A stretch of 64,000 nucleotides of DNA, from NCBI GenBank assembly GCA_964419575.1, contig CAYQQD010000001.1, forward strand, positions 7,403-71,402, given 5' to 3'. The translations under genes and the position numbers were made by a program. Below are positions 6,414 through 27,381 of the stretch, piece by piece (positions within the stretch are counted from its first letter, which is position 1; each line of letters opens with the position of its first letter). The DNA is from an uncultured Dehalococcoidales bacterium (GTDB taxonomy: Bacteria; Chloroflexota; Dehalococcoidia; Dehalococcoidales; E44-bin46). The notes below the pieces were generated by a model. That model searched no databases. It worked only from the letters and a program-made list of their open reading frames with translations, and was not told the origin of the DNA.

Positions 6414-6429
6414 TATTGCCCCCCTTTAC

Positions 6430-7770: not shown

Positions 7771-7815
7771 CGTTAATCAAACCTCCGCTATCTGGGTCGA
7801 AGAAAGACTATGCTT

Positions 7816-8601
7816 TCACTTCTTACTCACCGCCACCAGGGCATAGCCGGGTTTCCCCAGCCTGAGAAACTCCTGGTAGGACAAAATAGAGGGGGTAGAA
7901 CCTTCTGTCCCCTTCCGTTGACATGGCCCCGCTGGCAAACCAGCCAAGAAGTTATCTATAGACCCGAAGGTTGTGCCGAGCTGGAAGATTATTTTCCTTA
8001 ATTCGGATGAATAGTCTTCTATATAAGGAGACTGCAAACCAACCTGTTCAAAGAGATTGATATACTCCTCGGCTCGCCAAGCACCTGCAAGACAGCAGGC
8101 AAAACTGACCTGGCGCCTTAGCGCCTTACTTACCTCCCCCCTGAGGATAATATCGGTCATTACCAGCTTCCCCCCTGGCTTTAAGATGCGTCCAATGTCT
8201 CTGGCAGCCACTTCCTTATTGGGAAGAAGGGAGAAGGAACACTCGGATATTACAGTATCAAAGGAAGAATCGCTGAAGGGCAAGTTCTCACCATCACCGA
8301 GCAGGAAACTTACCCTGCTGGTTATCTCTTTTTCCTCAGCCCTAGCTCGACAGGAAGCAATCATCTTATCTGATAGGTCAATGCCGATAACCTGGCAGCC
8401 ATACTTTCTGGCTAGGAAAAAGGCGGTTGTGCCTTTGCCACAGGCAATATCTAAGACCAAATAGTTACTACTAATGCCAGCCACCTCAGCTAACCTTGCC
8501 GTAAGCTTTAGCCCGCCGGGGCGCAGCGTCTCCCCCAACAACTGGTCAAAGACACACGATTCGTATAGTTTAACCGCCTCTTCCTTAGCCTCATTAGTCA
8601 T
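7816..8601 (-). CDS. class I SAM-dependent methyltransferase
   Basis: 261 aa. Motif I 'VLDIACGKGTTA', then 'VIGIDLS' and 'LKPGGKLVMTD'. Confidence 0.8.
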   Translation of the reverse strand: MTNEAKEEAVKLYESCVFDQLLGETLRPGGLKLTARLAEVAGISSNYLVLDIACGKGTTAFFLARKYGCQVIGIDLSDKMIASCRARAEEKEITSRVSFLLGDGENLPFSDSSFDTVISECSFSLLPNKEVAARDIGRILKPGGKLVMTDIILRGEVSKALRRQVSFACCLAGAWRAEEYINLFEQVGLQSPYIEDYSSELRKIIFQLGTTFGSIDNFLAGLPAGPCQRKGTEGSTPSILSYQEFLRLGKPGYALVAVSKK

Positions 8602-8647
8602 ATTAATGTCCTACAATTTCCCCACAAGACCGGTTTTTGACGTTCGT

Positions 8648-8842
8648 TTACTTGGATTCGAGCATCTCCTCAACCTTATTCACTTTTTCCACCACTGTTT
8701 CCTCAAGCAAATAAGCGGCGCCGCATTTGGGACATTTTATCCCCTCGACAGCACCGCTTGTTTCAAGATAAGTCATCTCCACATCACCTTCCACCATTGG
8801 CTGTTTACATTTAAAACAATGCCATTGTTTCATTTTACTCAT
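8648..8842 (-). CDS. small zinc-ribbon protein (two CxxC knuckles)
   Basis: 64 aa. 'HCFKCKQ' and 'IKCPKCGA' lie about 26 aa apart, followed by an acidic helical tail. The start overlaps the upstream stop by 4 nt (ATGA). Confidence 0.55.
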   Translation of the reverse strand: MSKMKQWHCFKCKQPMVEGDVEMTYLETSGAVEGIKCPKCGAAYLLEETVVEKVNKVEEMLESK

Positions 8843-9099
8843 CCTTTCATCTCAGCCTTGTGGGCATATGCCGAGCCGACTATGTAGCTTCCTTGTTCAA
8901 TAGCATATTCCACATAGAACGTGGCTTTGCCTATCCTCAATTTAGCCAGGTACCGGTTTTCATCCGGCAGGTATAGTTTATCATCCCCGGTTTCGGCATG
9001 GTGTATTACCTGCCTCACCTCATCCTCTAAAATATGCCTCTCCTCCAGTAGCTGCTTTACTTCACTACTTACCTGCAGCTTTATCTCTTCCCAGGTCAC
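8839..9099 (-). CDS. small protein of unknown function, translationally coupled to the zinc-ribbon protein
   Basis: 86-aa ORF inside a tightly packed co-directional array, with a 4-nt overlap to the next gene. No family recognised with certainty. Confidence 0.5.
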   Translation of the reverse strand: MTWEEIKLQVSSEVKQLLEERHILEDEVRQVIHHAETGDDKLYLPDENRYLAKLRIGKATFYVEYAIEQGSYIVGSAYAHKAEMKG

Positions 9100-9160
9100 G
9101 TCGGCACCTCCTTAGATTTTGTCTTCCTTGACAAAATGCTTTCTAAGATACCTCTAATCT

Positions 9161-10321
9161 TTAGCCAGTCTTTCCCTTCTCCATCAATAATGACTTAAAC
9201 TGAGACTGGTTTTCTTTTCTGACCGATGGTTTGTTAGGCGGTTTTCGCATATCCTTTTCCCAGTGGGGATTAAATAGGAGGTCGAGGACATGCAGACTGG
9301 GCTTATGGACGGAAAGGGTCTCACGGCAGACGGCACAATAGGCAAGCATATCAAAGTGGGCTTCGGCTACCCTTTCTTTAGTCAAACTGAATACCCGCAT
9401 GGGATTAAGGGGAAGGATTAGACCTCCCTGACCACAGCATAAGGTAAGCTCTCTGGAGTGGGTTAACTCCTCTATCTGGTGCCCGGAAAGCTTGACCAAT
9501 TCCCTGACGCTGTCTTGTAACTTGGTTTCCCACCTAGCGGTACAGGAATCGTGCAGTGAGAAAGTGCGCTGACCATTTTTAGGCTGCTGAGGGACGCCCA
9601 CTTCTATCAGTACCTCATACAGCGTTTTCAGCTCAAAACTGGGGTTAGCCCGCTTAAAGGTGCGGTAGCAATCAGGGCAGGGCACAATCAATTCGGAAGC
9701 CCCCAATTTGCTCATCTCATGCTCTAATCCACCCATCGTCTCCTTAAACTGGGAATGCTCTCCCAAGCCATGATAAGGGGCACCACAGCACCTCAGGATA
9801 ATCCCGGTACCCGGTAGCTTCTTTCTAAGGTAGTCGTAGGTTGCCATGGTAAGGGAAGGCGAATAGGCTGGTAAATTGCAGCCGGTGAAGAATGCCCGCT
9901 TGCACTCAGTGGCATCTGGGTCAGGCAGGGACAGGGCAAAGGCTGGGGAAAGCGCCCATTCTACATCGTCATTGATAACTTTATGCGCCGGGAGCGGTCC
10001 TATTCCTTCCTCTACTAACAACTCACGGAGCACCAAACACAGCTCACCTATATTCACCCGGTAAGGGCAGGTCTTCTGGCATAGTTCGCATAGATTACAG
10101 GAATAGGGAATCTCGGGCTTTTCCTTAAAGTAGTCTTTCATCCCCAATAAGACCCTGCGGGCTATCTTGCGTGGGTCATAGTTCTTGTCGACCTCTCTAA
10201 CCAGGCAGCCAGCAGTGCATGTTCCGCACCCTAGGCAACGCCTCAGGTCTTCACCTTCCATCCGTGCCAAAACCTCTTCCCTGAATTTAGCATCCAGCTT
10301 ATTTACCAGTATTGGTTCCAA
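9161..10321 (-). CDS. HdrD-like Fe-S protein (HdrC-type 2x[4Fe-4S] fused to HdrB-type double CCG domain)
   Basis: 386 aa. Cluster motifs 'CLGCGTCTAGC' and 'CNLCELCQKTCP'. Two CCG-domain patterns are present: 'FFTGC...RCCGAP...PCPDC' and 'HDSC...LCCGQGG...YCAVC'. Confidence 0.8.
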   Translation of the reverse strand: MEPILVNKLDAKFREEVLARMEGEDLRRCLGCGTCTAGCLVREVDKNYDPRKIARRVLLGMKDYFKEKPEIPYSCNLCELCQKTCPYRVNIGELCLVLRELLVEEGIGPLPAHKVINDDVEWALSPAFALSLPDPDATECKRAFFTGCNLPAYSPSLTMATYDYLRKKLPGTGIILRCCGAPYHGLGEHSQFKETMGGLEHEMSKLGASELIVPCPDCYRTFKRANPSFELKTLYEVLIEVGVPQQPKNGQRTFSLHDSCTARWETKLQDSVRELVKLSGHQIEELTHSRELTLCCGQGGLILPLNPMRVFSLTKERVAEAHFDMLAYCAVCRETLSVHKPSLHVLDLLFNPHWEKDMRKPPNKPSVRKENQSQFKSLLMEKGKTG

Positions 10322-10370
10322 CTTTAACCCCCTACCATTACCTATTTATATCAAAGTTTCCGCTACTGGG

Positions 10371-11210
10371 CTAATACTCGCTAGACAACTCATTAAGCTG
10401 AGCTAGAGTAAATACGGGCCCAGCCTGGCAAACATATTTGTTGCCTATGTTGCACCGACCACATTTTCCTATCCCGCATTTCATCTTCATCTCCAGTGAC
10501 AGGATAATCCTCTGCGGTGGAAATCCAAGTTGCCTGAGAACTGGCAAGGTAAACTTTATCATGATTGGCGGACCGCAAACCACAGCATAGGCATTCTCCG
10601 GGCTGGGGGCAACCTCTTTGATAACGTTGGGGACGACCCCCACCTTTCCACGCCAGCCTTCGTCTGCCTGGTCCACGGTAAGATACAGGCCAAGGTCAGG
10701 CCTTGCTTCCCATTGTTTAAATTCGTCCTTATAAAGCAGTAAACCTGGGCGCCTAGCCCCATAGATAACGGTAACATTGCTAAACTGGCTCCGGTTCTCG
10801 TGATACAAAATGTATTTGAGTAGAGAGCGTAGGGTGGTAAAGGCAAACCCGCCGCCAACGATAACTATATTCTTGCCTTTAAACAATTCTAAGGGGAAGC
10901 AATTGCCGAGGGGACCTCTTATCCCGATTATTGCTCCTTCCTCTAGGTTGTGGAGTGCCGTAGTTAACACCCCTACCTTGTTCACCGTAAACTCAAGCGC
11001 CCCGGGTTGGGTTGGGGAAGAGGCTATACCAAAGGGGGCTTCACCTTCACCTAAAACCGATAACTGGGCAAACTGACCTGGCAAGTAGTTAAAGCTACTT
11101 TCCTCCGCCTTATTGAGAAAACTGAGGCTAAATGTCTTTATATTCTTGTCATCGGTTTCAATGACAATCTTTTCTGCTGTCATCGCTAATGGGATATATG
11201 GGTTCTTCAT
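10371..11210 (-). CDS. FAD/NAD(P)-binding oxidoreductase with C-terminal [2Fe-2S] (FlxA / AsrB / PyrK-like)
   Basis: 279 aa. Ferredoxin-reductase-type layout with C-terminal 'CGIGKCGRCNIG'. Confidence 0.8.
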   Translation of the reverse strand: MKNPYIPLAMTAEKIVIETDDKNIKTFSLSFLNKAEESSFNYLPGQFAQLSVLGEGEAPFGIASSPTQPGALEFTVNKVGVLTTALHNLEEGAIIGIRGPLGNCFPLELFKGKNIVIVGGGFAFTTLRSLLKYILYHENRSQFSNVTVIYGARRPGLLLYKDEFKQWEARPDLGLYLTVDQADEGWRGKVGVVPNVIKEVAPSPENAYAVVCGPPIMIKFTLPVLRQLGFPPQRIILSLEMKMKCGIGKCGRCNIGNKYVCQAGPVFTLAQLNELSSEY

Positions 11211-11221
11211 CTCTACTTTGC

Positions 11222-12256
11222 CTATCTATTTAATATGCTATTTAGCACCGTCCGTATATCTAGGTTCACCGGGCAGTCTTTAATGCACCGACCACACCCG
11301 ACGCAGGCGGCCACATTATGGTTATCCACAAAATACTTAAACTTATGCATTACCCTTTGCCTCATCCTTTCCTTCCCGGTGGGTCTGGGATTAACCCCTG
11401 ATGCCTCCAGGGTAAACAGGGGGAAGGAGCAAGTATCCCAGATACGAACCCTTCTCCCCATTTGGTCTAAAGTCTCATCAGCTATATCAAAGCAATGACA
11501 GGTGGGGCAGAGATAGGTGCAAACGGCACAGCCAAGGCACTTCTCGTGTAGCCAGTCCCAGAAGGGGTCTTCAAACATCCCGTCCAATTTCTTCTTTGTC
11601 TCCCCCGTCTCTACTTTGGATTTAATCAAGGTGCTTGCCCTCTGAGTAACCTTTCGCATTAAAGACAGACTACGCCGTCCTGCTTCCCTAAACTGGCTGT
11701 GTTTTTTAACCAGCTGCTTGCCCCTGTCGGTAACTGCTTGAACCACGTATTCCTGGTCGATATCTATGAGAAGCAGGTCTGAGCCGTCTGTGGAGAAAGG
11801 ACCTCCGCCTAAAGAGGTGCAGAAACAGGTACTACTTGGCTGGTTACAACCGATGGCCATGACTAACGTCCTTTCTCTTTTAGCCGTATAGTAGACATCT
11901 TTATACTCCTGGCTATTAAATATATTATCAAAGATAACCAGGCTTCTGGCATCACAAGGGCGGATGCCAAAGATTACCATCGGCTTATCTTCAAAGGTGG
12001 GCTCTTCTATCCCTAACCCCTCTCCACCTAAACGGTAATTAAATAACACCTCAGACTGAGGGAAGAAAATTTCCTTGGGTGGTTTCTTGGAGTTGACATA
12101 ATCTAGCAGGACTTCACTGCCTGAATGAATCTCCTGAAATGCAATAAAGCCGCCCTGTTTCACCGGGGCAAATACCTTATACTCACTGATTAAGCTATCT
12201 AAGAAGCGAGCCAGCTCGCTTTTGGCGATTTTCATTTCCTTCATAGTCATCTTCAC
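11222..12256 (-). CDS. 4Fe-4S dicluster protein (FlxB / AsrA-like)
   Basis: 344 aa. 'CLGCAVCTYLCPTCHC' and 'CVGCGRCIKDCP'. It sits between the FlxA-like and FlxC-like genes. Confidence 0.7.
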   Translation of the reverse strand: MKMTMKEMKIAKSELARFLDSLISEYKVFAPVKQGGFIAFQEIHSGSEVLLDYVNSKKPPKEIFFPQSEVLFNYRLGGEGLGIEEPTFEDKPMVIFGIRPCDARSLVIFDNIFNSQEYKDVYYTAKRERTLVMAIGCNQPSSTCFCTSLGGGPFSTDGSDLLLIDIDQEYVVQAVTDRGKQLVKKHSQFREAGRRSLSLMRKVTQRASTLIKSKVETGETKKKLDGMFEDPFWDWLHEKCLGCAVCTYLCPTCHCFDIADETLDQMGRRVRIWDTCSFPLFTLEASGVNPRPTGKERMRQRVMHKFKYFVDNHNVAACVGCGRCIKDCPVNLDIRTVLNSILNR

Positions 12257-12266
12257 CGGTTGATAT

Positions 12267-13217
12267 TTACCTTATAAATTGTTGAGGGTCATCCAGACTA
12301 AAGGCAGCCAAAGGTGGCATATCCTCAAGATTTACTCCTGCTTGGTAATGGAATAATTCTTTAACATCCTTTTCTATCTTCTTGGTAAGCTTTCTGATAT
12401 CAATACCCATCGGGCAGGCTCGGTCACAGGCACCGCAATCAACACATCGCCCGGCAGTGTGAAAGGCACGGATAATGTGAAACATTGAAGTATCGCTAAG
12501 ATTAGTGGTCTTCCCGATCCATTGGGGCTGGGAGCTATCGACAAAACACTCCTGGCAGTAGCATAACGGGCAAGCATTCCTACAGGCATAGCATCTAATA
12601 CATTTACTAACCTCGTTAGTGAAACTTTGCCATCTCCTATCAGCGGGTTGAGCTTCAAACTCCTTCACCTCTCCATACTCATCAATCCCTTGTTTTTCTT
12701 CTACTTTATCTCCAATTAGGACGTCATATATTACCGGGTTCCTATAGCTACAGGTGTTGCAGGAGTTATGGAGAAATTCTGCCTTGTTTATAGTCTCGGT
12801 AAAGTCACTGCCCTTGAGGATGACCCTTTCGGTTGCTTCATCGGCTTCTAGAATTTCCTTCCCGTCCAATTTAGCTTCGATCTTTCTCCTATCAATCATC
12901 CCGTGGCATGGAATACCAATAATGAGCACTTGCTCCCTAGCCACCTGCTTCTCTTTAATGAGACTAATAATTGAGCGGGTATCACAGCCTTTGGCAACAA
13001 TGCCGACCTTTTCCTTTCTCCCCCACAGATACCTGGCAAGGTTATTCTCGCAACTGGCATTCCAAATGAGCTTTTCTGCTTCTTCGCTCGTCCTAACAAA
13101 ACAGGGAGTGCTACGCAGAGGGAGGGTGCCTGTTTCAAACCCGATTATGAGGTCAACCCTCTTCTGGTCAAGCAATTTCTTGGCTGTATCCCTTATCATA
13201 ACTGATGTATTCAGCAT
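12267..13217 (-). CDS. Fe-S protein (FlxC-like; FrhB-like N-terminal part plus 2x[4Fe-4S])
   Basis: 316 aa. 'CIRCYACRNACPLC' and 'CVDCGACDRACP'. Confidence 0.65.
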   Translation of the reverse strand: MLNTSVMIRDTAKKLLDQKRVDLIIGFETGTLPLRSTPCFVRTSEEAEKLIWNASCENNLARYLWGRKEKVGIVAKGCDTRSIISLIKEKQVAREQVLIIGIPCHGMIDRRKIEAKLDGKEILEADEATERVILKGSDFTETINKAEFLHNSCNTCSYRNPVIYDVLIGDKVEEKQGIDEYGEVKEFEAQPADRRWQSFTNEVSKCIRCYACRNACPLCYCQECFVDSSQPQWIGKTTNLSDTSMFHIIRAFHTAGRCVDCGACDRACPMGIDIRKLTKKIEKDVKELFHYQAGVNLEDMPPLAAFSLDDPQQFIR

Positions 13218-13226
13218 AGGCTTACC

Positions 13227-13664
13227 TTAATCCAACTTTTTAACCAACTCCTTTGCCGGTCCCAAAGCCCTGACTTCCTCGGTAATCTCTGTTATCAGCT
13301 CGGCAAACCTTTTCCCTTCGGCAGCAGATACCCAGGCGAAGTGGACTCGCCCTTTCTCAATACCCAGGTATTCAAGGAGATTATTCAGAATGGCAAACTT
13401 CCTCCTGGCAACATAATTACCACTGAGATAGTGGCAATCACCGGGGTGGCACCCTGAAACCAGGACGCCATCGGCGCCACGCTGCAGGCTTTTTAAGATT
13501 AGCAGCGGACTTATTCTACTTGAGCAGGGGACGCGGATAATCCGAGTATTGGGCGGGTATTGAAGTCGGCTTACCCCGGCTAAGTCAGCGCCAGCATAGC
13601 TACACCAATTACAGAGAAAGGCGATTATTTTGGGTTCCCACCCGTTTACTTTTTCCTCTTGCAT
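13227..13664 (-). CDS. mvhD: MvhD / FlxD-type hydrogenase-delta-like protein
   Basis: 145 aa. 'FLCNWCSYAGADLAG' and 'GCHPGDCHY' signature. Confidence 0.85.
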   Translation of the reverse strand: MQEEKVNGWEPKIIAFLCNWCSYAGADLAGVSRLQYPPNTRIIRVPCSSRISPLLILKSLQRGADGVLVSGCHPGDCHYLSGNYVARRKFAILNNLLEYLGIEKGRVHFAWVSAAEGKRFAELITEITEEVRALGPAKELVKKLD

Positions 13665-13707
13665 TTTCTATACCCGTTATCTTAATTCCCCAGCGCTTAT
13701 CACTGTC

Positions 13708-16700
13708 CTAAGAAGCATTAATTAGGGCTAAAATCTGGGCATTACTGAACCCCTTCATATTCATTGCCCCACATATACAGGAAGAAACACATGCCCCACA
13801 CCCCTTACACAGAGCCTCATTGACCTTGGCTACCTTCTTGTCAGCATCAATGTCTACGGCTTGGAAGGGACAAATCAAGGCACAAACGCCGCAACCACTA
13901 CATTTGCTCTCATCGACAAGCGAGACCAATCCCCCGACTTCAATTACGTCCTTAGATAAGATGGTACCAGCCCTGGATGCTGCTGCCTTAGCCTGGGCGA
14001 TAGTTTCCTCAATAAACTTAGGGCTATGAGCCAGACCGCACATAAACACGCCTTCAGTAGCAAACTCCACCGGGCGTAGTTTCATGTGGGCTTCTAGCAA
14101 AAAGCCGTCCTCATTTAGGGGCACTTTGAATAGCTGGGACAATTTCTTGTTATCGGCAGCAGGAATGGCAGCTACGGCTAAAGCCAGTATATCGGTGTCT
14201 ATGACTAAATCCTCGCCTAATATCGGGTCTCTCATGGTAACCCGGAGCCGGTTCTGATTGTCCTCGGTTACAGTTTCCACCCTAGGTTTATCATCGGTGT
14301 CATAGCGAATGAAGATTACCCCTTTCTCTCTGGCTTCCCGGTAGTAATCTTCCTTAAAGCCATAGGTCCTGATATCCCGATAGAGGACATATATATTCAT
14401 CTTCGGTTTTGCCTCTTTTAGTTTCAGGGCACATTTTATAGACTCGCTGCAGCACACCCGGCTACAATAGGGGCGGTCAGTTTGCCTAGAACCAACACAT
14501 TGAATAATCACCGCATTATCGCAGCCAGCAATTCTACCGTTGCCTGTGGCAACCTCTTCTTCCAGTTCAAGTAAGGTCATCACCCTGGCGTCTTCCCCAT
14601 AAAAGTATTCGCTTGGCTTATACTCCTCGCCCCCGGTAGCAATAATCACCACTCCGTGCTTGAGTTCGTGGGTATCTCGGTTAGCCCCGACCTCTATCCG
14701 GGTAGTAAAATTGCCGACATAACCAGTGGCTTCAACAATATTGGCATTGGTATATACCTGGATTAGGGGACTTTCACAGACCCTGGTGATAAGGTCCTGG
14801 AGATAGGCCTGGATGTCATCGCCCTCCAGGGTATGTCGTATCCTTCTGGCTATTCCTCCCAACTTTTCGCCTCTCTCAACCAGATAGACCTCAAATCCTT
14901 GTTCAGCCAGGTTCAAGGCAGCCACCATCCCGGCTATACCGCCGCCAATAACTAAGCCACGGTGAATTACCTCCAGGGGAGTCTGGGCTACAGGGTGGAT
15001 AAGCCTGGCTTTGGCTACTGCCATTTTTACCAATTCCTTGGCTTTCCCGGTAGCCTCCTCGGGATAATCTTTATGCACCCAGGAACACTGGTCTCGAATA
15101 TTAGCCATCTCAAATAGATACCGGTTTAACCCTGCCTGTCTAATTGTCTCTTGAAACAGTGGTTCGTGGGTGCGGGGGGTGCAAGAAACAACCACTACTC
15201 GATTGAGACTGTGCTGTCTAATCTTCTCCTTTATCCGCTCCTGGGTGTCTTGAGAGCAGGTGTAAAGATTAGCCTCAGCATAGACGACATTGGGCAGGCT
15301 AGCAGCATATTCCTTTACCTCGGGGACATTTACCACTCCAGCAATATTGATGCCGCAGTGACAGACAAAAACCCCAATCCTCGGTGGCTCTCCCCTTATA
15401 TCTCTTTCCGGGGGGTACTCCTTTTTCTTTACCAGGCTATTACGTACCGAGGAAAGTGAGGCAGAAGCTGAAGCTGCGGTGGCACTCGCCTGCATCACTG
15501 TTTCGGGGATGTCTTTAGGACCCTGAAAAGCCCCACAAACGAATATACCTGGCTTAGAGGTCTCAACAGGCAAGAAACCATCAGTTTTACAGAACCCATA
15601 TTTATTGAGTTCGATTCCCAGTCTACTAGCTAGCTCCTCAGCCCCTTTAGATGGCTCAAGCCCAACCGAGAGGACAACCAGGTCAAATTCCTCCTTTATC
15701 AGCTTACCGTCCTCAGCCTCATACTTTATCCTCAGATTTTTTGTCTCTGGTATCTCCTCAATTACCGAGGGTCTACACCTGATAAACCTGACCCCGTGCT
15801 CACTCATTGCCCGCTCATAGTAGGCCTCAAACCCTTTGCCGAAAGTCCGCATATCCATAAAGAAGATGGCGGTGTCCAAGGGGAGACGGCTGTGCTCCTT
15901 AGCCACTATTGCCTCTTTGATGGCATAGGTACAACAGACTCCTGAGCAGTAGCCTTTACCTTGATTTAAATCTCTTGAACCGACGCATTGAATAAAGGCA
16001 ATTTTTTGAGGAATATCCCTATCAGAGGGTCTTAATAGTTCACCCTGATACGGTCCAGAGGCGCTTAGCATCCGCTCAAACTCAATGCTAGTGACGACAT
16101 TAGGGTACTTACCGTACCCGTAGTTCAGCATAAGAGCCACCTCGGGCAACCCATATCCAGGGCAAAGAATGACAGAGCCGACATTTATTGTCTGGATTTC
16201 CTCCTTATCTGAATACTGTACTGCTTTGGCTAGGCACAACTTGTCACATAAGCCGCATCCAATACATTTTTCCCTGTCGATAGCGTAAGCCCTTGGCACT
16301 GCTTGTGGATACTTTACATAAATAGCAGCCCGGTTACTCAGCCCCTCATCAAAGGAATTGGTTGTTCTTACTGGGCAATGTTTGGCACACTCGCCACACC
16401 CGGTACATTTATCAATATCGATGTACCGCGCCTTCTTAGCTAGGGTAACTTGGAAATTGCCGGCTTCGCCTTTTATGTCTTTTATCTCGGCATTAGTCAT
16501 GATACTAATATTTAAATGCCGTCCACACTCAACCAATTTGGGCGACAGGATGCACATTGAGCAATCATTGGTGGGGAAGGTCTTATCAAGTTGAGCCATC
16601 ACCCCGCCAACCGCCGGTGACTGTTCGGCTAAATAGACATAGAACCCTGATTCAGCTAAGTCAAGGGCTGCCTGTATACCCCCGATACCGCCACCAATAA

Positions 16701-16743
16701 CTAGCACCGCTCCCGTTTTGCCATTTAAGCTAACTTTAGCCAA
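13708..16743 (-). CDS. hdrA: giant HdrA-like flavoprotein (two HdrA-type cores in one chain), copy 1
   Basis: 1011 aa. Two dinucleotide loops are present ('VIGGGIGGIQAALDLAESG' at the N-terminus and 'VIGGGIAGMVAALNLAEQG' near aa 600). It also carries 'FPTNDCSMCILSPK', two 'QCVGSR...YCS.VCC' motifs, 'VFVCHCGINI' and four CxxCxxCxxxC motifs. Confidence 0.85.
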   Translation of the reverse strand: MAKVSLNGKTGAVLVIGGGIGGIQAALDLAESGFYVYLAEQSPAVGGVMAQLDKTFPTNDCSMCILSPKLVECGRHLNISIMTNAEIKDIKGEAGNFQVTLAKKARYIDIDKCTGCGECAKHCPVRTTNSFDEGLSNRAAIYVKYPQAVPRAYAIDREKCIGCGLCDKLCLAKAVQYSDKEEIQTINVGSVILCPGYGLPEVALMLNYGYGKYPNVVTSIEFERMLSASGPYQGELLRPSDRDIPQKIAFIQCVGSRDLNQGKGYCSGVCCTYAIKEAIVAKEHSRLPLDTAIFFMDMRTFGKGFEAYYERAMSEHGVRFIRCRPSVIEEIPETKNLRIKYEAEDGKLIKEEFDLVVLSVGLEPSKGAEELASRLGIELNKYGFCKTDGFLPVETSKPGIFVCGAFQGPKDIPETVMQASATAASASASLSSVRNSLVKKKEYPPERDIRGEPPRIGVFVCHCGINIAGVVNVPEVKEYAASLPNVVYAEANLYTCSQDTQERIKEKIRQHSLNRVVVVSCTPRTHEPLFQETIRQAGLNRYLFEMANIRDQCSWVHKDYPEEATGKAKELVKMAVAKARLIHPVAQTPLEVIHRGLVIGGGIAGMVAALNLAEQGFEVYLVERGEKLGGIARRIRHTLEGDDIQAYLQDLITRVCESPLIQVYTNANIVEATGYVGNFTTRIEVGANRDTHELKHGVVIIATGGEEYKPSEYFYGEDARVMTLLELEEEVATGNGRIAGCDNAVIIQCVGSRQTDRPYCSRVCCSESIKCALKLKEAKPKMNIYVLYRDIRTYGFKEDYYREAREKGVIFIRYDTDDKPRVETVTEDNQNRLRVTMRDPILGEDLVIDTDILALAVAAIPAADNKKLSQLFKVPLNEDGFLLEAHMKLRPVEFATEGVFMCGLAHSPKFIEETIAQAKAAASRAGTILSKDVIEVGGLVSLVDESKCSGCGVCALICPFQAVDIDADKKVAKVNEALCKGCGACVSSCICGAMNMKGFSNAQILALINAS
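15542..15797. repeat. 256-bp tract identical to 19356-19611 (inside hdrA copy 1)
   Basis: Base-by-base comparison of the two paralogues shows a constant offset of 3814 bp with no mismatch over 256 bp. Flanks are clearly diverged. Confidence 0.9.
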
Positions 16744-16757
16744 CTCTGTTTGACCGC

Positions 16758-17519
16758 CTATTTCTTGATGTATTTAGGTGTCCTGTGCTCAAGGGTGTGA
16801 AGGTGCACCTCCCCCGTCTGCTCAAGGTCGACCAGATATGAGGAAATAAGCTTTGGGTCAAGGCTGGTAGCTTGAGCTATCTCTCTAACCGACATCGCCT
16901 GTTGTTGTAAAAGGATAGCTATCCAGCTCTTAATATATTCGTCACGAATTGCGGTATCCAAAAGCGACTCAAATTTATCTGGAGATATCTTCTCGCCAAA
17001 CACATTTCCCTTCTCTACTAGACCAATCTCATTACCCACCAGCCAGCGTACTTTTTCCGTCTGTAAGGTAGCTCTAACCGCCCGGAGACGCTGGCGTAAG
17101 GGTTCATCGGTGCCGTCGGCTTTAAGCGGACCGATAGCTCTGACTTTATTGATGAATGAGGTAACGATGTCAACAAACCTCTGCCCCTCAGCGGCTGATA
17201 CCCAGTCAAGGCGAAGCCTTTCCGGATGAACCCCGGCAATATCCAGGAGTCTTTTAGTCATTTTCATCTTTTTCTCTGCGTAGTAGTTACCAGTGCCATA
17301 GTGGCAATCACCAAAGTGGCAACCTAAAACCAGAACCCCGTCCAAACCGGCGAGAAAGGCGGTAATAATAAACACCGGGTCAACCCGGCCTGAGCACATA
17401 GTCCTAATATTCACCACATTAGCCGGGTATTGGAATCGGGATATGCCAGCCAAATCAGCGCCAGCATAAGAACACCAGTTACACAAGAAAGATAGTATTC
17501 TAGGCTCGAAATTTGACAT
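16758..17519 (-). CDS. mvhD: MvhD-like domain fused to a ~120-aa C-terminal extension ending in a winged-helix-like segment
   Basis: 253 aa. N-terminal 'FLCNWCSYAGADLAG' and 'GCHFGDCHY'. The C-terminus 'MSVREIAQATSLDPKLISSYLVDLEQTGEVHLH' looks like a wHTH recognition unit. Confidence 0.75.
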   Translation of the reverse strand: MSNFEPRILSFLCNWCSYAGADLAGISRFQYPANVVNIRTMCSGRVDPVFIITAFLAGLDGVLVLGCHFGDCHYGTGNYYAEKKMKMTKRLLDIAGVHPERLRLDWVSAAEGQRFVDIVTSFINKVRAIGPLKADGTDEPLRQRLRAVRATLQTEKVRWLVGNEIGLVEKGNVFGEKISPDKFESLLDTAIRDEYIKSWIAILLQQQAMSVREIAQATSLDPKLISSYLVDLEQTGEVHLHTLEHRTPKYIKK

Positions 17520-17527
17520 TTTCCCCT

Positions 17528-20500
17528 TTATGCCACTGCCAAGGCATTAATCTGGGCTATTAGCTCGTCATCGGTAAAGTGCCCCATGGTTATTGCCTGC
17601 TGCGGGCAACTAGCGGCACACAAACCACAACCGGTACACAGTGCCGCAATCGTCTCAGCCTTATTGACTCCGTTCACCGGCTTCAGCCGGATAGCCTCAA
17701 AGGCACAAACTGACTCACACAGCCCGCAGCCAATGCATTTTTCGGCATCAACAGAGGACACGATGCCCTCTACTGTGACATAGCCTTTGGATAATGGAAT
17801 TGAGGCTCGCCCGGCAGCCCCCATAGCTTGAGAAATTGATTCGTCTATCATCTGGGGAGAGTGAGCTATGCCGCACAGGAAAATACCTCGGGTGCTTGAA
17901 TCCGCCGGTCTAAGCTTCACATGGGCTTCCATCAAGAAACCATCCTCATTAACCGGAGTCTTCAGCAGCCTAGCTAGCTCATCAACTTTATTGGGGATGA
18001 TGCCGCTACTCAGTGCCACTAAGTCACAATCGATGGCTACTTTTTCACCCAGCATTAGCTCCAATACCGCTACATTGAGTTTGCCATTCTTTGAGGCAAC
18101 TTCTGGCTTATGGCTATCGTCATATCGGATAAACGTTACACCTTCAGCCCTTGCCGTGGTATAAAACTCCTCCCTAAACCCATAGGTCCTTACATCTTTA
18201 TACAGGACATATATATTTGCCGATGGATTTATTTCTTTTATCTTTAGGGCATTTTTGATAGCCTGGCTACAGCATACCCGGCTGCAATACGGTCTTTCCT
18301 GGTTACGGGAACCAACACACTGAATCATTACTACATCGTTTACAGCCTTCTCTTCCAAGGTATGTGTCGCCAGTTTGTGTTCTAATTCCTTCTGGGTTAC
18401 CACATTAGGGTGTTCCCCATACAGATATTCTTTCGGCTTATATTCTTGGCCGCCGGTGGCGACGATAATAACCCCGTGCTCCAAAGTCTCCTCTGCTTCT
18501 GACCTTCTTACCGTAGTCCTAAAATTGCCAATATAGCCGGTAATGTCTTTAATCTCAGCATTGAGATAAACCTCGATTAACCTGTGATGGTGCACCCTGT
18601 CTATGGTCTCTTTCAGAAGCTGCTGAACATCTTTCCCGTCCAAAGTCCAGTAAATATCCCGCAGGTTACCTCCAAGCTTATCGCTTTTCTCAACCAGAAA
18701 GCACATGAATCCTTGCTCAGCTAGCTTCAGGGCTGCTGTCATCCCAGCTATCCCTCCGCCGATAACCAGAGCCTTATTGACCACGCTCACACTGAGTTCA
18801 GTTAATGGCTGGATAAGCCTGGCTTTGGCTACCGCCATTTTAACTAATTCCTTAGCTTTCTCGGTAGCCAGCTCCGGTTGCCCTTTATGCACCCAGGAGC
18901 ACTGGTCTCGGATATTAGCCATCTCAAAGAGGTATTTGTTTAGCCCTCCCTGTCTAATGGTTTCCTGGAATAAGGGCTCGTGAGTTCGGGGGCTGCAAGC
19001 CGCCACGACCACTCGATTAAGGTCATGCTCCTTAATCCTCTCCTTTATCAGCTCTTGGGTGTCTTGAGAGCAGGCATAAAGATTAGCCTCAGCATAGACC
19101 ACGTCGGGGAGGCTAGCAGCATATTCCTTTACCCCGGGGACATCGACCACCCCACCAATATTGACGCCGCAATGGCAGACAAAAACTCCTATCCTCGGTG
19201 GCTCTCCTATTATATCCCTTTCTGGGGGATACTCCTTTTTCTTTATCAGGCTATTGCGGGCAGGGGAGAGTAGGGCGGCGGCTAAAGCAGTGGCAGCACT
19301 GGCTTGAGTTACTGTTTCCGGGATATCTTTTGGTCCGCTAAAGGCGCCACTGACAAATATACCTGGCTTAGAGGTCTCAACAGGCAAGAAACCATCAGTT
19401 TTACAGAACCCATATTTATTGAGTTCGATTCCCAGTCTACTAGCTAGCTCCTCAGCCCCTTTAGATGGCTCAAGCCCAACCGAGAGGACAACCAGGTCAA
19501 ATTCCTCCTTTATCAGCTTACCGTCCTCAGCCTCATACTTTATCCTCAGATTTTTTGTCTCTGGTATCTCCTCAATTACCGAGGGTCTACACCTGATAAA
19601 CCTGACCCCGTATTCATTCATTGCCCGCTCATAGTAGGCTTCAAAGCCTTTGCCAAAGGTCCGCATATCCATAAAGAAGATGGCGGTGTCTAGCGGGATA
19701 GGGCTGTGTTCCTTAGCCACTATTGCTTCTTTAATAGCATAAGGGCAACAGACTGAGGAGCAATAACTACTCTGTGGAGATTCCCCTCGTGAGCCAACAC
19801 ATTGTATCCAAGCAATCTTTTGGGCTTGTTGCCTGTCCGAAGGTCTTAGTAACTCACCTTGATACGGTCCAGAGGCACTTAGAATTCTTTCAAACTCAAT
19901 ACTGGTGACGACATTAGGGTATCTGCCATACCCATACTGCGGAACAAGGCTAGCTTCAAACTTGTTAAAGCCGGGACACAGGATGATTGACCCTACCTGT
20001 AGCTCAATAGTCTGATCGGTTTGGTTGAAATCGACAGCCTTAACCGAGCAGAACTTCTCGCAAGCTCGGCATTTACCCGTTTTAAAGTAAACACAAAGCT
20101 CCTTATCAATAACCGGCACATTGGGTATTGCCTGAGCATAAGGGATGTAGATGGCTTTTCTCTTGCCCAAGCCTTGGTCGAACTCGCTATCCGTTTTCCA
20201 CGGGCACTTCGTTTGGCAGATGCCACATCCGGTACACAGAGATTCGTTTACATACCTAGCTCGCTTGTTAACCCTGACCTTAAAGCTGCCCGGTTTCCCG
20301 CTAACATCCAAGATGTCGGCATAGGTTATGATGTCAACATTTAAATTCCGGCCACATTCCACCAGTTTTGGGGAGAGGATACATATGGAGCAGTCATTGG
20401 TGGGGAAGGTCTTGTCAAGTTGAGCCATCACCCCACCAATAGCCGGCGATTGCTCAACCAAATAGACATAGTACCCAGACTCGGCTAGGTCCAGGGCTGC

Positions 20501-20584
20501 CTGAATACCGCCAATACCCCCACCGACAACCAGTACCGCCCCGGTTTTATGGTTGACAGTCGGCTGGGCACTTGACTTCGCCAT
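17528..20584 (-). CDS. hdrA: giant HdrA-like flavoprotein, copy 2
   Basis: 1018 aa, collinear with copy 1. Same motifs: 'VVGGGIGGIQAALDLAESG', 'VIGGGIAGMTAALKLAEQG', 'FPTNDCSICILSPK', 'VFVCHCGVNI'. Confidence 0.85.
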   Translation of the reverse strand: MAKSSAQPTVNHKTGAVLVVGGGIGGIQAALDLAESGYYVYLVEQSPAIGGVMAQLDKTFPTNDCSICILSPKLVECGRNLNVDIITYADILDVSGKPGSFKVRVNKRARYVNESLCTGCGICQTKCPWKTDSEFDQGLGKRKAIYIPYAQAIPNVPVIDKELCVYFKTGKCRACEKFCSVKAVDFNQTDQTIELQVGSIILCPGFNKFEASLVPQYGYGRYPNVVTSIEFERILSASGPYQGELLRPSDRQQAQKIAWIQCVGSRGESPQSSYCSSVCCPYAIKEAIVAKEHSPIPLDTAIFFMDMRTFGKGFEAYYERAMNEYGVRFIRCRPSVIEEIPETKNLRIKYEAEDGKLIKEEFDLVVLSVGLEPSKGAEELASRLGIELNKYGFCKTDGFLPVETSKPGIFVSGAFSGPKDIPETVTQASAATALAAALLSPARNSLIKKKEYPPERDIIGEPPRIGVFVCHCGVNIGGVVDVPGVKEYAASLPDVVYAEANLYACSQDTQELIKERIKEHDLNRVVVAACSPRTHEPLFQETIRQGGLNKYLFEMANIRDQCSWVHKGQPELATEKAKELVKMAVAKARLIQPLTELSVSVVNKALVIGGGIAGMTAALKLAEQGFMCFLVEKSDKLGGNLRDIYWTLDGKDVQQLLKETIDRVHHHRLIEVYLNAEIKDITGYIGNFRTTVRRSEAEETLEHGVIIVATGGQEYKPKEYLYGEHPNVVTQKELEHKLATHTLEEKAVNDVVMIQCVGSRNQERPYCSRVCCSQAIKNALKIKEINPSANIYVLYKDVRTYGFREEFYTTARAEGVTFIRYDDSHKPEVASKNGKLNVAVLELMLGEKVAIDCDLVALSSGIIPNKVDELARLLKTPVNEDGFLMEAHVKLRPADSSTRGIFLCGIAHSPQMIDESISQAMGAAGRASIPLSKGYVTVEGIVSSVDAEKCIGCGLCESVCAFEAIRLKPVNGVNKAETIAALCTGCGLCAASCPQQAITMGHFTDDELIAQINALAVA
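19356..19611. repeat. 256-bp tract identical to 15542-15797 (inside hdrA copy 2)
   Basis: See the partner repeat. The shadow ORFs 15605-15820 and 19419-19634 give almost the same 71-aa translation. Confidence 0.9.
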
Positions 20585-20692
20585 TACATTCCCCCGAAAA
20601 GAATAAGGTGGGTAACATAGTTAATGCCAGAGTTGCTGGCAATGAGACCATCCCAGCTAGTTGTGGTATTCAGACCAAGTGGTGGTGCTCAA

Positions 20693-21433
20693 CTACTTCT
20701 CTGGTTTAGCTGGTTTAGGAATATTTGTTGGGTTTACTAATTCGGTTAGTTGCTGTGATTCCCAAGTCCGGTTATACCACGGGAAACCTATCAGCGGGGT
20801 AACGATCCCCCTCTGTCTCCTTGACCGTAAGATTATCTCGCAAGTTATCTCCGCCACTAGGGCACATAGCTCAGCACAGTATACAGACCACATTGAGAAA
20901 ACCTCGCCCGACCTAACCCGCTCTATCTGCATGAGGTCAAGACGGTCAACCGGAGCCAGGCGCTTGCCAAAATGGGCATCACACAAATCGCCACAGCGGA
21001 CATGACCATTAGTACGTTGGGCAAACCGTTCCATAAGTTCAAACACCCGTGCCTGGGCTAAAGTAAAATTGCTATGCCCTTTAGACCGAGGTCCGCCTTC
21101 CTCGGTAAAGTCCACCCGCCCGAACGCTAGACCAATAGCAGCGATTCCTCCCACTAGGGCACAGCAAATCTCGTTACCACCAAAACCTCCAGAGAGGGTG
21201 GTCATAAGCACTACCGACTCCCTCGTCCCCAGACCAAGATGAAGGGATAAGGGATATAAAACTGTCTGACCACAAATCCGATACTTAAGCTGTAACTCCC
21301 GCGAGTCCCGAACCACCCTCCTTATAATCGCCTCATCATCGGTTTCATCCCGACTCCAGAACTGCCAGTCCTTCCGGTGCTGTTCATCCTTGAAGACATC
21401 GGCTAAATGAGCCATTAGTTTCCCATATACCAT
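20693..21433 (-). CDS. C_GCAxxG_C_C family protein (putative redox-active)
   Basis: 246 aa. 'GGFGGNEICCALVGGIAAIG' fits the C-GCAxxG core, with further Cys pairs 'RCGDLC' and 'YCAELC'. Confidence 0.65.
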   Translation of the reverse strand: MVYGKLMAHLADVFKDEQHRKDWQFWSRDETDDEAIIRRVVRDSRELQLKYRICGQTVLYPLSLHLGLGTRESVVLMTTLSGGFGGNEICCALVGGIAAIGLAFGRVDFTEEGGPRSKGHSNFTLAQARVFELMERFAQRTNGHVRCGDLCDAHFGKRLAPVDRLDLMQIERVRSGEVFSMWSVYCAELCALVAEITCEIILRSRRQRGIVTPLIGFPWYNRTWESQQLTELVNPTNIPKPAKPEK

Positions 21434-21708
21434 TTGTCGATTCTCCTCCTAAGTTTTAATGCTATCGACCGTGAGTAGAAATTCCTTTCACTAGCCCTAT
21501 GCTGGTAACTAAATTGACAGCTTGAATTGTACTATACACAAAAGGGAAGCGTCAAACAATTTGATGGCGAGGGGAAGGGTCAGCGCAGTTTTGCTCTCCA
21601 GCACCGACTAGAGAGATGGCTGGAGTTTTGATACAATCGGTTGGAAGAAAAGGCGGGCGAGTATTTTGGTTCTAGATTAACAAAGAGGCTATAAAGGGAG
21701 GCACATAG

Positions 21709-22368
21709 ATGGAACTTGAGATCCTAGAGAGCTTGAAAAGAGCCGTCCTAGAATACGATACCGAAGCTGCAACCAGCTGGGCCAGAAGAGCCGTGGCGAC
21801 AAAGGTAAATCCAGTCAAGGCTCTGGATATCCTTACAGAGGCTATCAGACAGGTAGGTGACCGCTTTGGTAGAGGAGAACTCTGGCTTCCTGATTTAGTT
21901 GGGGCAGCTGATGCCATGCAAGCTGCTATGCCCATTCTAGAAGAAGAGCTTAAGAGAACAGGGGCGAAGCGAGAAACCCTGGGGGTTGCTGTCGTCGGGA
22001 CAGTTTTTGGGGACATCCATAGTATAGGGAAGTCTATGGTATGTACCATGCTCACTGCCGGCGGCTTTGAGGTGCATGACCTGGGTGTGAATATCAAGGC
22101 TGAGGAGTTCCTTGAGGCAGTAGAGAAATATCAAGCCGACATCTTGGCTATGTCAGCCCTCTTGACCACCACCGCCGTAGAGCAGAGAAAAGTTATTGAT
22201 GCCCTCAAGGAGAAAGGTATCAGGGAGAAGATAAAGGTCATGGTAGGTGGGGGCGCCATAACCGCAGAGTTTGCCAAAAGCATTGGGGCTGATGGATATG
22301 ACCCCACTGCTCCTGGTGCTGTGGAGCTAGCCAAGAGACTGGTTGGGAAAAGCAGTTGCTCTAGTTAG
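21709..22368 (+). CDS. corrinoid (B12-binding) protein, MtaC/MttC-like
   Basis: 219 aa. 'GDIHSIGK' (DxHxxG), 'MSALLTTT' (SxL) and 'VMVGGGA' (GG), plus an N-terminal helical cap domain. Confidence 0.85.
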   Translation: MELEILESLKRAVLEYDTEAATSWARRAVATKVNPVKALDILTEAIRQVGDRFGRGELWLPDLVGAADAMQAAMPILEEELKRTGAKRETLGVAVVGTVFGDIHSIGKSMVCTMLTAGGFEVHDLGVNIKAEEFLEAVEKYQADILAMSALLTTTAVEQRKVIDALKEKGIREKIKVMVGGGAITAEFAKSIGADGYDPTAPGAVELAKRLVGKSSCSS

Positions 22369-22715
22369 CTTGGTGGCGTTGGTCAGGCATATCGCAGCAT
22401 CGATGGCGGTAAAACCTGGTACGAAGCGCATAAGCCGCCTACCGGAGGGGCTATCTCCTGGATGAGTTGTGATCCCAACACCGATGATTGCTCACTTGTT
22501 TATTGCGTTTCCACTGATTTCTGGGATGTCCTTGTCCCTCGAGACATTGATGTTCCTGTCGCTCGGATGATGGTGGCAACACCTGGGAGCGTGTCCTTAC
22601 CTCAGGTCTGAAGCTACTGGTAGATGGCAGAGAAATTGAAGTCGGACCACACCTCAAGTGTCCAGTTTCAGGGGTTCACTCCAGGCACCCCAGAAGACAG
22701 AGCAAAAAAGAATAA
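22369..22715 (+). pseudogene. remnant of a BNR/Asp-box repeat protein with an internal frameshift and no start
   Basis: Two Asp-box motifs lie in different frames: 'SIDGGKTW' (frame of 22369, stop at 22609-22611) and 'SDDGGNTW' (frame of 22560, stop at 22713-22715). Confidence 0.5.
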
Positions 22716-22800
22716 GAATAAAATCTATATGTATTTTCAAGATAGACTTTAGAACAACAAAACACTGCCACTATTTTGGTAGAGCAGTCTTAATTGGTGT

Positions 22801-27357: not shown

Positions 27358-27381
27358 GATTAACATAAGGAGGAAATTGAG

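Follow-up and report, generated by a model that had tools for sequence, protein, structure and literature searches.

A putative NAD(P)H-linked Flx-Hdr electron-bifurcation operon with two fused HdrA proteins in an uncultured Dehalococcoidales bacterium

The eight-gene locus

This analysis concerns a 64,000-nucleotide (nt) stretch of DNA from an uncultured Dehalococcoidales bacterium (assembly GCA_964419575.1, contig CAYQQD010000001.1, positions 7,403-71,402). The stretch is called the window, and all coordinates refer to it unless another locus is named. Eight co-directional open reading frames (ORFs) occupy positions 9161-20584 of its minus strand. An earlier note on this DNA had described them as an Flx/Hdr-type electron-bifurcation locus of non-canonical composition, with gaps of 8-49 bp between the genes. 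The ORFs were recovered as described, with intergenic gaps of 8, 14, 43, 9, 10, 11 and 49 bp in transcription order, and domain calls from Pfam and NCBIfam scans agree with that description. In the order of transcription, the genes and the evidence for their assignment are as follows.

17528-20584, minus strand: hdrA_b, a fused HdrA (type II / BamE-like) of 1018 aa (NCBIfam HdrA2, Pfam, alignment to 5ODC_A)
16758-17519, minus strand: long MvhD adaptor, 253 aa (PF02662, AF2 model, Foldseek)
13708-16743, minus strand: hdrA_a, a fused HdrA (type II / BamE-like) of 1011 aa, the Flx-adjacent copy (NCBIfam, phmmer against the PDB, AF2)
13227-13664, minus strand: short MvhD (FlxD equivalent), a [2Fe-2S] adaptor of 145 aa (PF02662, NCBIfam VhuD)
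12267-13217, minus strand: FlxC-like g5, a shortened FdhB-like iron-sulfur subunit of 316 aa (Fer4_8/Fer4_17, 7BKB_E alignment)
11222-12256, minus strand: FlxB-like g6, an iron-sulfur subunit of 344 aa (NCBIfam HydB/AsrA, 9NEZ_B)
10371-11210, minus strand: FlxA-like g7, an NAD(P)H-binding flavoprotein with [2Fe-2S], 279 aa (Pfam, 9NEZ_C)
9161-10321, minus strand: HdrD-like g8, an HdrC-HdrB fusion of 386 aa (CCG, Fer4_8, NCBIfam NF045663)

Domain matches of such strength and length are far beyond chance, and together with synteny they bear out the assignment to the Flx/Hdr type. The closest named relatives of the encoded proteins, at 87-90% identity, belong to metagenome-assembled genomes (MAGs) of Dehalococcoidia and Chloroflexota. 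The locus is best read as a true eight-gene operon that would encode a soluble, NAD(P)H-linked electron-bifurcating complex of the heterodisulfide-reductase type. A promoter and terminator scan of 4800-24200 gave counts near the shuffled expectation (29 vs 22.5; 26 vs 18.6). It singled out one promoter-like site, a weak one at 20642-20614, and past g8 no terminator was convincing. Rfam and tRNA scans gave no match in the locus. All eight proteins use cysteine, and selenocysteine is not used.

Anatomy of the fused HdrA proteins

The earlier note had taken each HdrA to be an internal HdrA-HdrA tandem and had proposed a domain scan and a structure prediction of the 1,011-aa protein as a check. 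The fusion is real, but the halves are not complete copies, and the accessory domains are split between them. NCBIfam HdrA2/HdrA models match both proteins in three stretches each (E = 0 for the 1018-aa and 8e-303 for the 1011-aa protein), and each protein holds two GxGxxG loops and two 'QCVGSR...YCS.VCC' cores. In HdrA_b, a TrxR-like FAD (flavin adenine dinucleotide) domain 1, into which a 2x[4Fe-4S] ferredoxin domain is inserted, is followed by an HdrA N-terminal domain, a TrxR-like FAD domain 2 and, at the C terminus, a 2x[4Fe-4S] domain. In HdrA_a, the first TrxR-like domain (TrxR1) with its inserted ferredoxin domain spans aa 12-431, the N-terminal domain 455-590, the second TrxR-like domain (TrxR2) 594-940 and the ferredoxin domain at the C terminus 940-1000. 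Relative to the HdrA of M. thermolithotrophicus (5ODC_A), this order is permuted. A phmmer comparison with PDB sequences aligned aa 8-378 to 5ODC_A 141-511 (TrxR-like FAD domain with the inserted ferredoxin domain), aa 452-624 to 5ODC_A 2-174 (N-terminal domain and the beginning of the second TrxR-like domain) and aa 878-1006 to 5ODC_A 514-644. The AlphaFold2 (AF2) model of HdrA_a (pLDDT 80.7, pTM 0.85) has canonical HdrA chains as its top structural matches; among the PDB entries searched there was no fused HdrA, and the best matches were single HdrA chains.

The residues expected to matter for flavin and cluster chemistry are retained. When the halves of both paralogues were aligned to 5ODC, the four cluster cysteines (5ODC C386/399/403/404) and GxGxxG were found in all four TrxR-like domains, as were residues equivalent to K409 and E356, the pair by which bifurcating HdrA flavins are recognised (PMC12054007). 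The cluster cysteines C253/266/270/271 and C749/760/764/765 are invariant across 32 homologues. K770 of HdrA_a has an equivalent lysine in HdrA_b, and the position is at least 90% conserved among the homologues aligned. The pair C61/C64 (5ODC Cys194/197) and the inserted ferredoxin domain are confined to the N-terminal halves; the N-terminal domain and the ferredoxin domain at the C terminus are found with the C-terminal half only. Because one accessory-domain set is split between the halves, each HdrA of about 1,010 aa is a single-chain pseudo-heterodimer that holds one such set rather than two complete HdrA proteins.

Proteins of this kind are widespread, with more than 8000 homologues in the databases. 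Forms of about 1,010 aa occur in Chloroflexota and Bathyarchaeota, and homologues of about 1,480 aa with an additional GltD-like domain in Thermodesulfobacteriota. The latter recall HdrL, a protein defined in Desulfobacterium autotrophicum (PMC2702500). HdrL is likewise a large HdrA-derived protein followed by MvhD, and homologues of about 1,480 aa hold the position ahead of MvhD-FlxCBA in 11 of 52 loci. Membership of the window proteins in HdrL was rejected, since the additional GltD-like NAD(P)H-binding domain of HdrL (PF14691/Fer4_20 and a further Pyr_redox_2) is not matched in either the 1011- or the 1018-aa protein.

Fused HdrA proteins have been described in other settings. In methane-metabolising archaea the fusion is called 'type II HdrA', which according to that study is without biochemistry, and K409/E356 are kept in both halves of 75% of the archaeal proteins (PMC12054007). 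Further examples are HdrA3/4 of anaerobic methanotrophic archaea (ANME) and the HdrA of Moorella MetFV-Hdr (PMC9012536). The window proteins resemble them in having two TrxR-like domains per chain, in lacking Cys197 and the N-terminal domain in a complementary manner, and in keeping K409/E356 in both halves. Their partners differ: FdhB and a non-catalytic molybdopterin protein (with F420H2 as donor) or MetFV there, and an FlxABC NAD(P)H module here. The half without the N-terminal domain comes first in the window proteins, whereas HdrA3/4 show the opposite order (Chadwick et al., PMC9012536).

The structural precedent is class II benzoyl-CoA reductase (BCRII) of Geobacter metallireducens, for which a structure from cryo-electron microscopy is available (bioRxiv 10.64898/2026.04.10.717634). 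Its BamE subunit is a fused HdrA dimer in which TrxR1 carries the bifurcating FAD with Lys280, and TrxR2 a structural FAD with Gln768 (bioRxiv 10.64898/2026.04.10.717634). The BamE structure also shows the complementary division between the halves that PMC9012536 reports for fused HdrA. Lys280, position 768 and Cys59/62 of BamE correspond to K276, K770 and C61/C64 in the window. Because this residue numbering, the sole basis of the comparison, is nearly the same, the window proteins appear to share the domain permutation of BamE. At the flavin N5 of TrxR2, the window proteins have a lysine where BamE has a glutamine.

Two HdrA-MvhD units of probably distinct paralogue classes

The earlier note had also described a tandem duplication of the HdrA-MvhD unit. 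Two units are indeed present, but a recent tandem duplication was rejected: the two HdrA proteins are 64% identical, and their nearer homologues in other phyla fall into two different classes. Each of the 20 Flx-adjacent copies that were compared from other genomes scores higher against HdrA_a. With the copies that precede a long MvhD in L001, another Dehalococcoidia MAG, and in four Desulfobacterota, the higher score is against HdrA_b. Copies from Syntrophobacteraceae are ambiguous between the classes, which were defined by this score comparison and by a neighbour-joining tree that is crude. Identity and class affinity together argue for two old, distinct paralogue classes, as far as the sequences tell.

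The two genes have nonetheless probably exchanged sequence, as judged from one pair of tracts.

15542-15797, minus strand: putative gene-conversion tract in hdrA_a, 256 nt, perfectly identical to 19356-19611
19356-19611, minus strand: partner tract in hdrA_b, 256 nt, perfectly identical to 15542-15797

These tracts lie within an overall nucleotide identity of about 76% between the hdrA genes. In L001, which is an independent assembly, the paralogues share identical tracts of 116 nt and 58 nt. We read the shared tracts as probable gene conversion, not as an assembly artefact, and the identical tracts within L001 suggest that such conversion is recurrent.

Each unit has its own MvhD. The short MvhD is a plain member of its family (PF02662, E=4.8e-55; NCBIfam VhuD, E=2e-36). 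The long one matches PF02662 over aa 8-130 (E=3.6e-50) and continues for about 120 residues without a family assignment, for which the profile scan gave only sub-threshold helix-turn-helix (HTH) matches. In its AF2 model, which is confident (pLDDT 88.8), the MvhD [2Fe-2S] domain (aa 5-133) leads through a helical linker into a winged helix at the C terminus (aa ~211-252). In Foldseek, the N-terminal part corresponds to the MvhD chain 5ODC_D (TMt 0.83) and the C-terminal part to winged helices of the ArsR/SmtB kind. Homologues of 250-260 aa are numerous, and some exceed the Pfam HTH thresholds. In every locus examined, the long MvhD directly adjoins a fused HdrA of an Flx locus.

A counterpart is again found in BCRII, where the MvhD protein BamF exceeds the usual length by more than 100 aa and has two Rossmann domains and a winged helix that docks BamI (bioRxiv 10.64898/2026.04.10.717634). 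By analogy, the winged helix of the long MvhD may serve as a docking element. The two proteins, compared by description, differ in that the window model has one Rossmann-like domain with helices and the C-terminal winged helix, and BamF has two Rossmann domains.

The Flx input module

Genes g5-g7 were assigned to the Flx type by domain content, synteny and published descriptions. The g7 product contains FAD_binding_6, NAD_binding_1 and DHODB_Fe-S_bind (DHOD-B-type [2Fe-2S]) domains in Pfam; it matches the NADPH-binding gamma subunit of P. furiosus sulfhydrogenase I (9NEZ_C, E=1.4e-49) and is also homologous to AsrB. The g6 product matches the NCBIfam models HydB (E=2.7e-59) and AsrA (E=5.9e-46) and the beta subunit of the same sulfhydrogenase (9NEZ_B, E=3e-54). 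These two proteins would form an NAD(P)H:iron-sulfur diaphorase module. The g5 product has two [4Fe-4S] motifs (Fer4_8/Fer4_17) and a weak FrhB_FdhB_C match. Its residues 13-136 and 184-307 align to FdhB of the Fdh-Hdr-Fmd complex (7BKB_E, E=8e-29), with about 100 central FdhB residues missing, and it also matches the FdhB chain 8RVU_E of the solved Elp-Hdr complex. The family is uniform in size: nearly all of its 6645 homologues have 315-317 aa.

Distribution and described relatives

The FlxC family served as the anchor for a census, a pattern scan of one genome per species with confirmation by tblastn. It returned at least 594 matches in species-representative genomes, and thousands of metagenomic homologues exist besides. 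Synteny was examined in the best 80 of these at least 594 loci and in four loci from protein look-ups, with ORFs classified against the window proteins. Among the loci with at least 4.2 kb of upstream sequence, a fused HdrA stands directly ahead of MvhD-FlxC in 39/52 and an HdrL-size protein in 11/52. The core of fused HdrA (or HdrL), MvhD, FlxC, FlxB and FlxA is thus present in 50 of the 52 informative loci, which come from many phyla, and FlxB and FlxA come after FlxC in almost all loci that reach far enough downstream. What comes after FlxA is variable: an HdrD-like gene in 16/62 loci with sufficient downstream sequence, HdrBC in 4/62 and an HdrC-like gene alone in 6/62. The entire order of the locus is repeated in the Dehalococcoidia MAG L001 and in L039 and L041, two genomes of Syntrophobacteraceae. 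What is observed at this locus is its gene content, the anatomy of its domains, the cofactor-ligand motifs and the conserved synteny.

Two side observations concern the form of these genes in other lineages. In several Desulfobacterota loci (L007, L009, L011, L013, L039, L041 and others), the reading frames of HdrA and MvhD are interrupted about 61-66 residues from their start. The break falls on the NDCxxC motif in HdrA and on GCHxGDC in MvhD, which is consistent with in-frame selenocysteine codons; the window versions are uninterrupted, with cysteine. In the freshwater Chloroflexi version (L003/L004, 13641-14359), a small PIN-domain toxin-antitoxin-like gene pair lies between mvhD and flxC.

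The best-known relative is FlxABCD-HdrABC of D. vulgaris Hildenborough, as portrayed in the papers that cite Ramos et al. (2015). According to these papers, the two systems share an FlxA-type NAD(P)H flavoprotein, two iron-sulfur subunits, an MvhD adaptor, an HdrA-type flavoprotein and a terminal reductase with CCG domains, and the model for D. vulgaris is oxidation of NADH with ferredoxin and DsrC as the proposed acceptors. The gene order hdrA-mvhD-flxC-flxB-flxA-hdrD of the window stands against flxABCD-hdrABC in those accounts. The window locus also differs from D. vulgaris in having two fused HdrA proteins instead of one canonical HdrA, HdrB and HdrC in one polypeptide, an additional long MvhD with a winged helix, and no dsrC nearby.

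Its composition is non-canonical, as the earlier note had it, only relative to this D. vulgaris system. The same or similar gene sets have been published (PMC5947623, PMC4759654), and a fused HdrA, when HdrL-size forms are included, is the rule in the loci surveyed (50/52). In S. fumaroxidans, the Hdr/Flox cluster Sfum_1969-1977 has HdrD in place of HdrBC, two hdrA genes and the Flox genes in one cluster, all of which the window locus shares, and the Flox proteins were produced under all growth conditions tested (PMC5947623). Locus I of D. reducens (Dred_0137-0148) has a similar composition, with HdrA, two iron-sulfur proteins, an FlxA orthologue, MvhD and HdrD (PMC4759654). Both clusters are known from genomes and proteomes, not from enzymology. 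They belong to another phylum than the window, and the Dehalococcoidia are not known to us to reduce sulfate. The deltaproteobacterial ORFs are interrupted, which suggests selenocysteine, whereas the window proteins are cysteine-only. The window locus adds a Dehalococcoidia member to a widespread, already described and biochemically uncharacterised Flx-Hdr variant.

The earlier note had also raised the possibility of a known, characterised complex with the same composition. BCRII comes halfway: BamDEF unites an HdrD-like protein, a fused HdrA and a long MvhD, as the window does, but the input and output modules are different. The tungsten-dependent BamBC output and the BamGHI input are not in the window, FlxABC takes the role of the input, and, unlike in BCRII, no selenocysteine is used.

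The synteny also bears on whether the eight genes encode one enzyme or two. HdrA_a, the short MvhD, FlxCBA and HdrD could be complete by themselves, and HdrA_b with the long MvhD could be an independent enzyme, the winged helix of which docks another donor or acceptor encoded elsewhere. HdrA_b is of a different paralogue class, and in four Desulfobacterota loci a second fused HdrA and long MvhD stand after the Flx genes, beside further HdrA-like genes. The Bathyarchaeota locus L002 (CP070773.1) encodes a long MvhD, a fused HdrA, MvhD, FlxC, FlxB and FlxA, then GcvH-like genes, and thus has the long MvhD without a second fused HdrA. The BamF winged helix docks a different input module, BamI, in BCRII (bioRxiv 10.64898/2026.04.10.717634), and of the two HdrA proteins of S. 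fumaroxidans just one was seen in the proteome (PMC5947623). Against two enzymes stand the gaps of only 8 and 14 bp that separate hdrA_b, the long mvhD and hdrA_a, and the constant position of the long MvhD directly beside a fused HdrA of the Flx locus in the loci examined. We regard two separate enzymes as unlikely.

The HdrD-like terminal subunit

The replacement of HdrB and HdrC by one HdrD-like fusion, as noted earlier, is confirmed for g8, which joins an HdrC-like part to two CCG motifs. The protein carries two CX2CX2CX3C cubane-cluster motifs, and both CCG motifs are complete (C148...CC178/179...C215xxC218 and C260...CC295/296...C329xxC332), with 10/10 cysteines kept. It matches NCBIfam NF045663 over aa 25-382 (E=1.6e-88) as well as Pfam CCG and Fer4_8, and its N-terminal part matches HdrC (8RVV_C, E=4e-12).

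Its closest relatives, at 45-48% identity, are the C-terminal modules of proteins of about 840 aa with a GltD-like N-terminal part (Fer4_20 and Pyr_redox_2), a kinship that agrees with the best NCBIfam match, NF045663. The HdrD-like proteins of related Flx loci are only 13-24% identical to g8, which by this comparison is probably of a different lineage. At so low an identity, it looks as though lineages have swapped the terminal subunit. An alignment of 17 HdrD-like proteins from related loci (L003-L080; the copies of L039 and L041 are too short and were left out) shows the first CCG motif degenerated in 8/17 and the second kept in 16/17. The degeneration of the first motif parallels the degenerate distal cluster reported for BamD.

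BamD is an HdrD-like HdrBC fusion in which the distal non-cubane cluster is usually degenerate and which reduces electron-transferring flavoprotein, ETF (bioRxiv 10.64898/2026.04.10.717634). It raises the alternative that the high-potential exit of the window complex is a protein partner, either ETF as for BamD or a DsrC-type or lipoyl carrier encoded elsewhere, and not a free low-molecular-weight disulfide. The BCRII structure and cryo-electron tomography have BamD passing electrons to ETF, with the heterodisulfide pocket filled (bioRxiv 10.64898/2026.04.10.717634), and in D. vulgaris the partner put forward for Flx-Hdr is DsrC, again according to the citing papers. The eight degenerate first motifs among the 17 related HdrD-like proteins point the same way, and Bathyarchaeota L002 has a GcvH-like gene after FlxA, a second GcvH-like gene and LplA. 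However, g8 has both CCG motifs in full, unlike most homologues of BamD. When the remaining window ORFs of at least 120 aa and the intergenic small ORFs were scanned with Pfam, the 64-kb window showed no etfAB, dsrC or gcvH-like gene, nor any hydrogenase, mcr, tungsten aldehyde-oxidoreductase (AOR-family), NuoEFG-like or coenzyme M/coenzyme B (CoM/CoB)-related gene. The earlier note was right that dsrC, CoM/CoB and hydrogenase genes are absent from the window. A protein partner at the exit is a possibility that we hold to be doubtful.

The setting in L002 deserves a description of its own. At 16446-23084 of that locus, a GcvH-like lipoyl carrier comes directly after FlxA, and next in line are a small CCG protein, a 1252-aa fusion of HdrA, GltD and MvhD, another GcvH-like protein, OsmC and the lipoate-protein ligase LplA. 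This arrangement brings to mind the proteins that bind lipoate in sulfur-oxidising Hdr-like systems and hints that the partner there is a lipoyl protein.

Proposed electron flow

We propose that the locus encodes one soluble cytoplasmic Flx(Flox)-Hdr complex that would oxidise NAD(P)H and, by flavin-based bifurcation, divide the electrons reversibly between ferredoxin and, at the HdrD-like subunit, an acceptor of the disulfide type, a reading to which we give a probability of roughly 55%. The donor, the acceptors, the direction and the union of all eight products in one complex are what we infer. NAD(P)H would be oxidised at the FlxA-like g7 (FAD, [2Fe-2S]), and the electrons would pass through the [4Fe-4S] chain of the FlxB-like g6 to the FdhB-like g5. 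They would enter the fused HdrA at its C-terminal ferredoxin domain and reach the FAD of TrxR domain 1 through the [2Fe-2S] cluster of MvhD. The first electron would take a high-potential branch from the TrxR1 [4Fe-4S] cluster through the cubane clusters of the HdrD-like subunit to its two non-cubane (CCG) clusters, where a disulfide would be reduced. The second would take a low-potential branch from the C61/C64 pair through the cluster of the N-terminal domain and the inserted ferredoxin domain to ferredoxin. The fused HdrA would replace the canonical HdrA homodimer, with a single port for input and a single one for ferredoxin. The other fused HdrA and the long MvhD adaptor with its winged helix would form a second, evolutionarily distinct bifurcation module of the same assembly.

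To our knowledge, the Flx-Hdr variant with fused HdrA is to date without biochemistry, and this is the first of several points that weigh against the proposal. The likeness of g5-g7 to D. vulgaris FlxABC was judged from domain content, synteny and published descriptions. None of the disulfide-carrier candidates sought with Pfam (DsrC, CoM/CoB genes, GcvH-like) lies in the 64-kb window. BCRII is the one solved complex that pairs a fused HdrA with an HdrD-like subunit; there the HdrD-like subunit reduces ETF and not a disulfide, and TrxR2 is structural (bioRxiv 10.64898/2026.04.10.717634). The proteome of S. fumaroxidans contained one of the two HdrA proteins and not HdrD (PMC5947623). Because the HdrD-like proteins after FlxA elsewhere are only 13-24% identical to g8, the output of the complex may also differ between lineages.

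The direction of the reaction is a separate matter. In fermentative or acetogenic Dehalococcoidia, the complex could mainly confurcate, so that reduced ferredoxin and a thiol (or another mid-potential donor) reduce NAD(P)+, which would replenish NAD(P)H or return ferredoxin to its oxidised state. Confurcation was proposed for Hdr/Flox by the authors of the S. fumaroxidans proteome study (PMC5947623); enzymes of flavin-based electron bifurcation are reversible, and confurcation is discussed in PMC12054007. The window itself encodes a 2-oxoacid:ferredoxin oxidoreductase (49104-51661) that produces reduced ferredoxin. The sequence, however, does not fix the direction, and the published D. vulgaris model, as the citing papers give it, runs from NADH to ferredoxin and DsrC. 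We consider a mainly confurcating role quite unlikely.

The most speculative extension of the proposed complex is that the two fused HdrA proteins are wired in series through the long MvhD adaptor. Two coupled bifurcation or confurcation events could then deliver a reductant well below the ferredoxin potential or drive a difficult reduction in Dehalococcoidia, with the HdrD-like subunit and its two intact CCG motifs passing the high-potential electrons to a new thiol/disulfide carrier. All four flavin sites of the two HdrA proteins keep the Lys/Glu signature, unlike BamE. We rate such wiring as improbable.

Genomic neighbourhood

The genes around the locus add context. Directly past g8, at 8648-9099 on the minus strand, are genes for an 86-aa protein and a 64-aa zinc-ribbon protein (DUF7479). 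The 86-aa ORF (8839-9099) was considered as a DsrC-like disulfide carrier and rejected; it has no cysteine and no Pfam match. Further downstream on the same strand (5013-8601) lie genes for an S-adenosylmethionine (SAM) methyltransferase, for a radical SAM enzyme that bears a zinc ribbon of the HMPTM type, and for an AMP-forming ligase. These five genes also lie downstream of the locus in L001 (13467-17598).

On the upstream side, 108 bp away and on the same strand, a gene at 20693-21433 encodes a 'putative redox-active protein' of the C_GCAxxG_C_C type, which could conceivably be a thiol-redox partner; L001 does not have it at the corresponding position. The region 21709-24243 encodes a B12-binding protein (plus strand), a 402-aa reductive-dehalogenase-like iron-sulfur protein (its Dehalogenase match is weak, E 5.6e-4) and a fragment of an integrase core (rve_3) of 50 aa.

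The plus strand then carries a gene cluster for sulfur and Fe-S assembly (24651-35165). It includes an Rrf2 regulator, ThiF, two class-V aminotransferases of the cysteine desulfurase type, PALP enzymes, a hexapeptide transferase, a Cys/Met pyridoxal-phosphate (PLP) enzyme, an NIL-domain protein, IscU (NifU_N), Thi4, DUF6775 and a ThiS-like protein with a GG end. At 38321-42627 (plus strand), genes for a 678-aa GltD-like flavoprotein with Fer4_11, a 757-aa molybdopterin oxidoreductase and a MOSC protein look like a putative NAD(P)H-linked enzyme of the formate-dehydrogenase type. The minus strand carries the two-subunit 2-oxoacid:ferredoxin oxidoreductase (49104-51661), a likely source of reduced ferredoxin, and an 822-aa glycyl-radical enzyme with its activase (56457-59977).

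Significance

Complexes of the Flx-Hdr type are thought to set the balance of NAD(P)H, ferredoxin and thiols in many strict anaerobes. The Dehalococcoidia are a dominant subsurface group, the energy metabolism of which is poorly known. We know of no member of the FlxC-anchored module that has been purified to date. The locus described here extends the variant with fused HdrA, long MvhD and HdrD to uncultured Dehalococcoidia. What appears specific to it, judged from its genes, is the Lys/Glu pair in four flavin domains, two intact CCG motifs, the lack of selenocysteine, and a g8 of a different lineage. A selenium-free version with all ligands intact would be convenient for heterologous expression, and it could be used to test whether the second flavin is catalytic, or structural as in BamE. 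For annotation, these genes are not evidence for CoM/CoB metabolism or sulfate reduction in the organisms that carry them.

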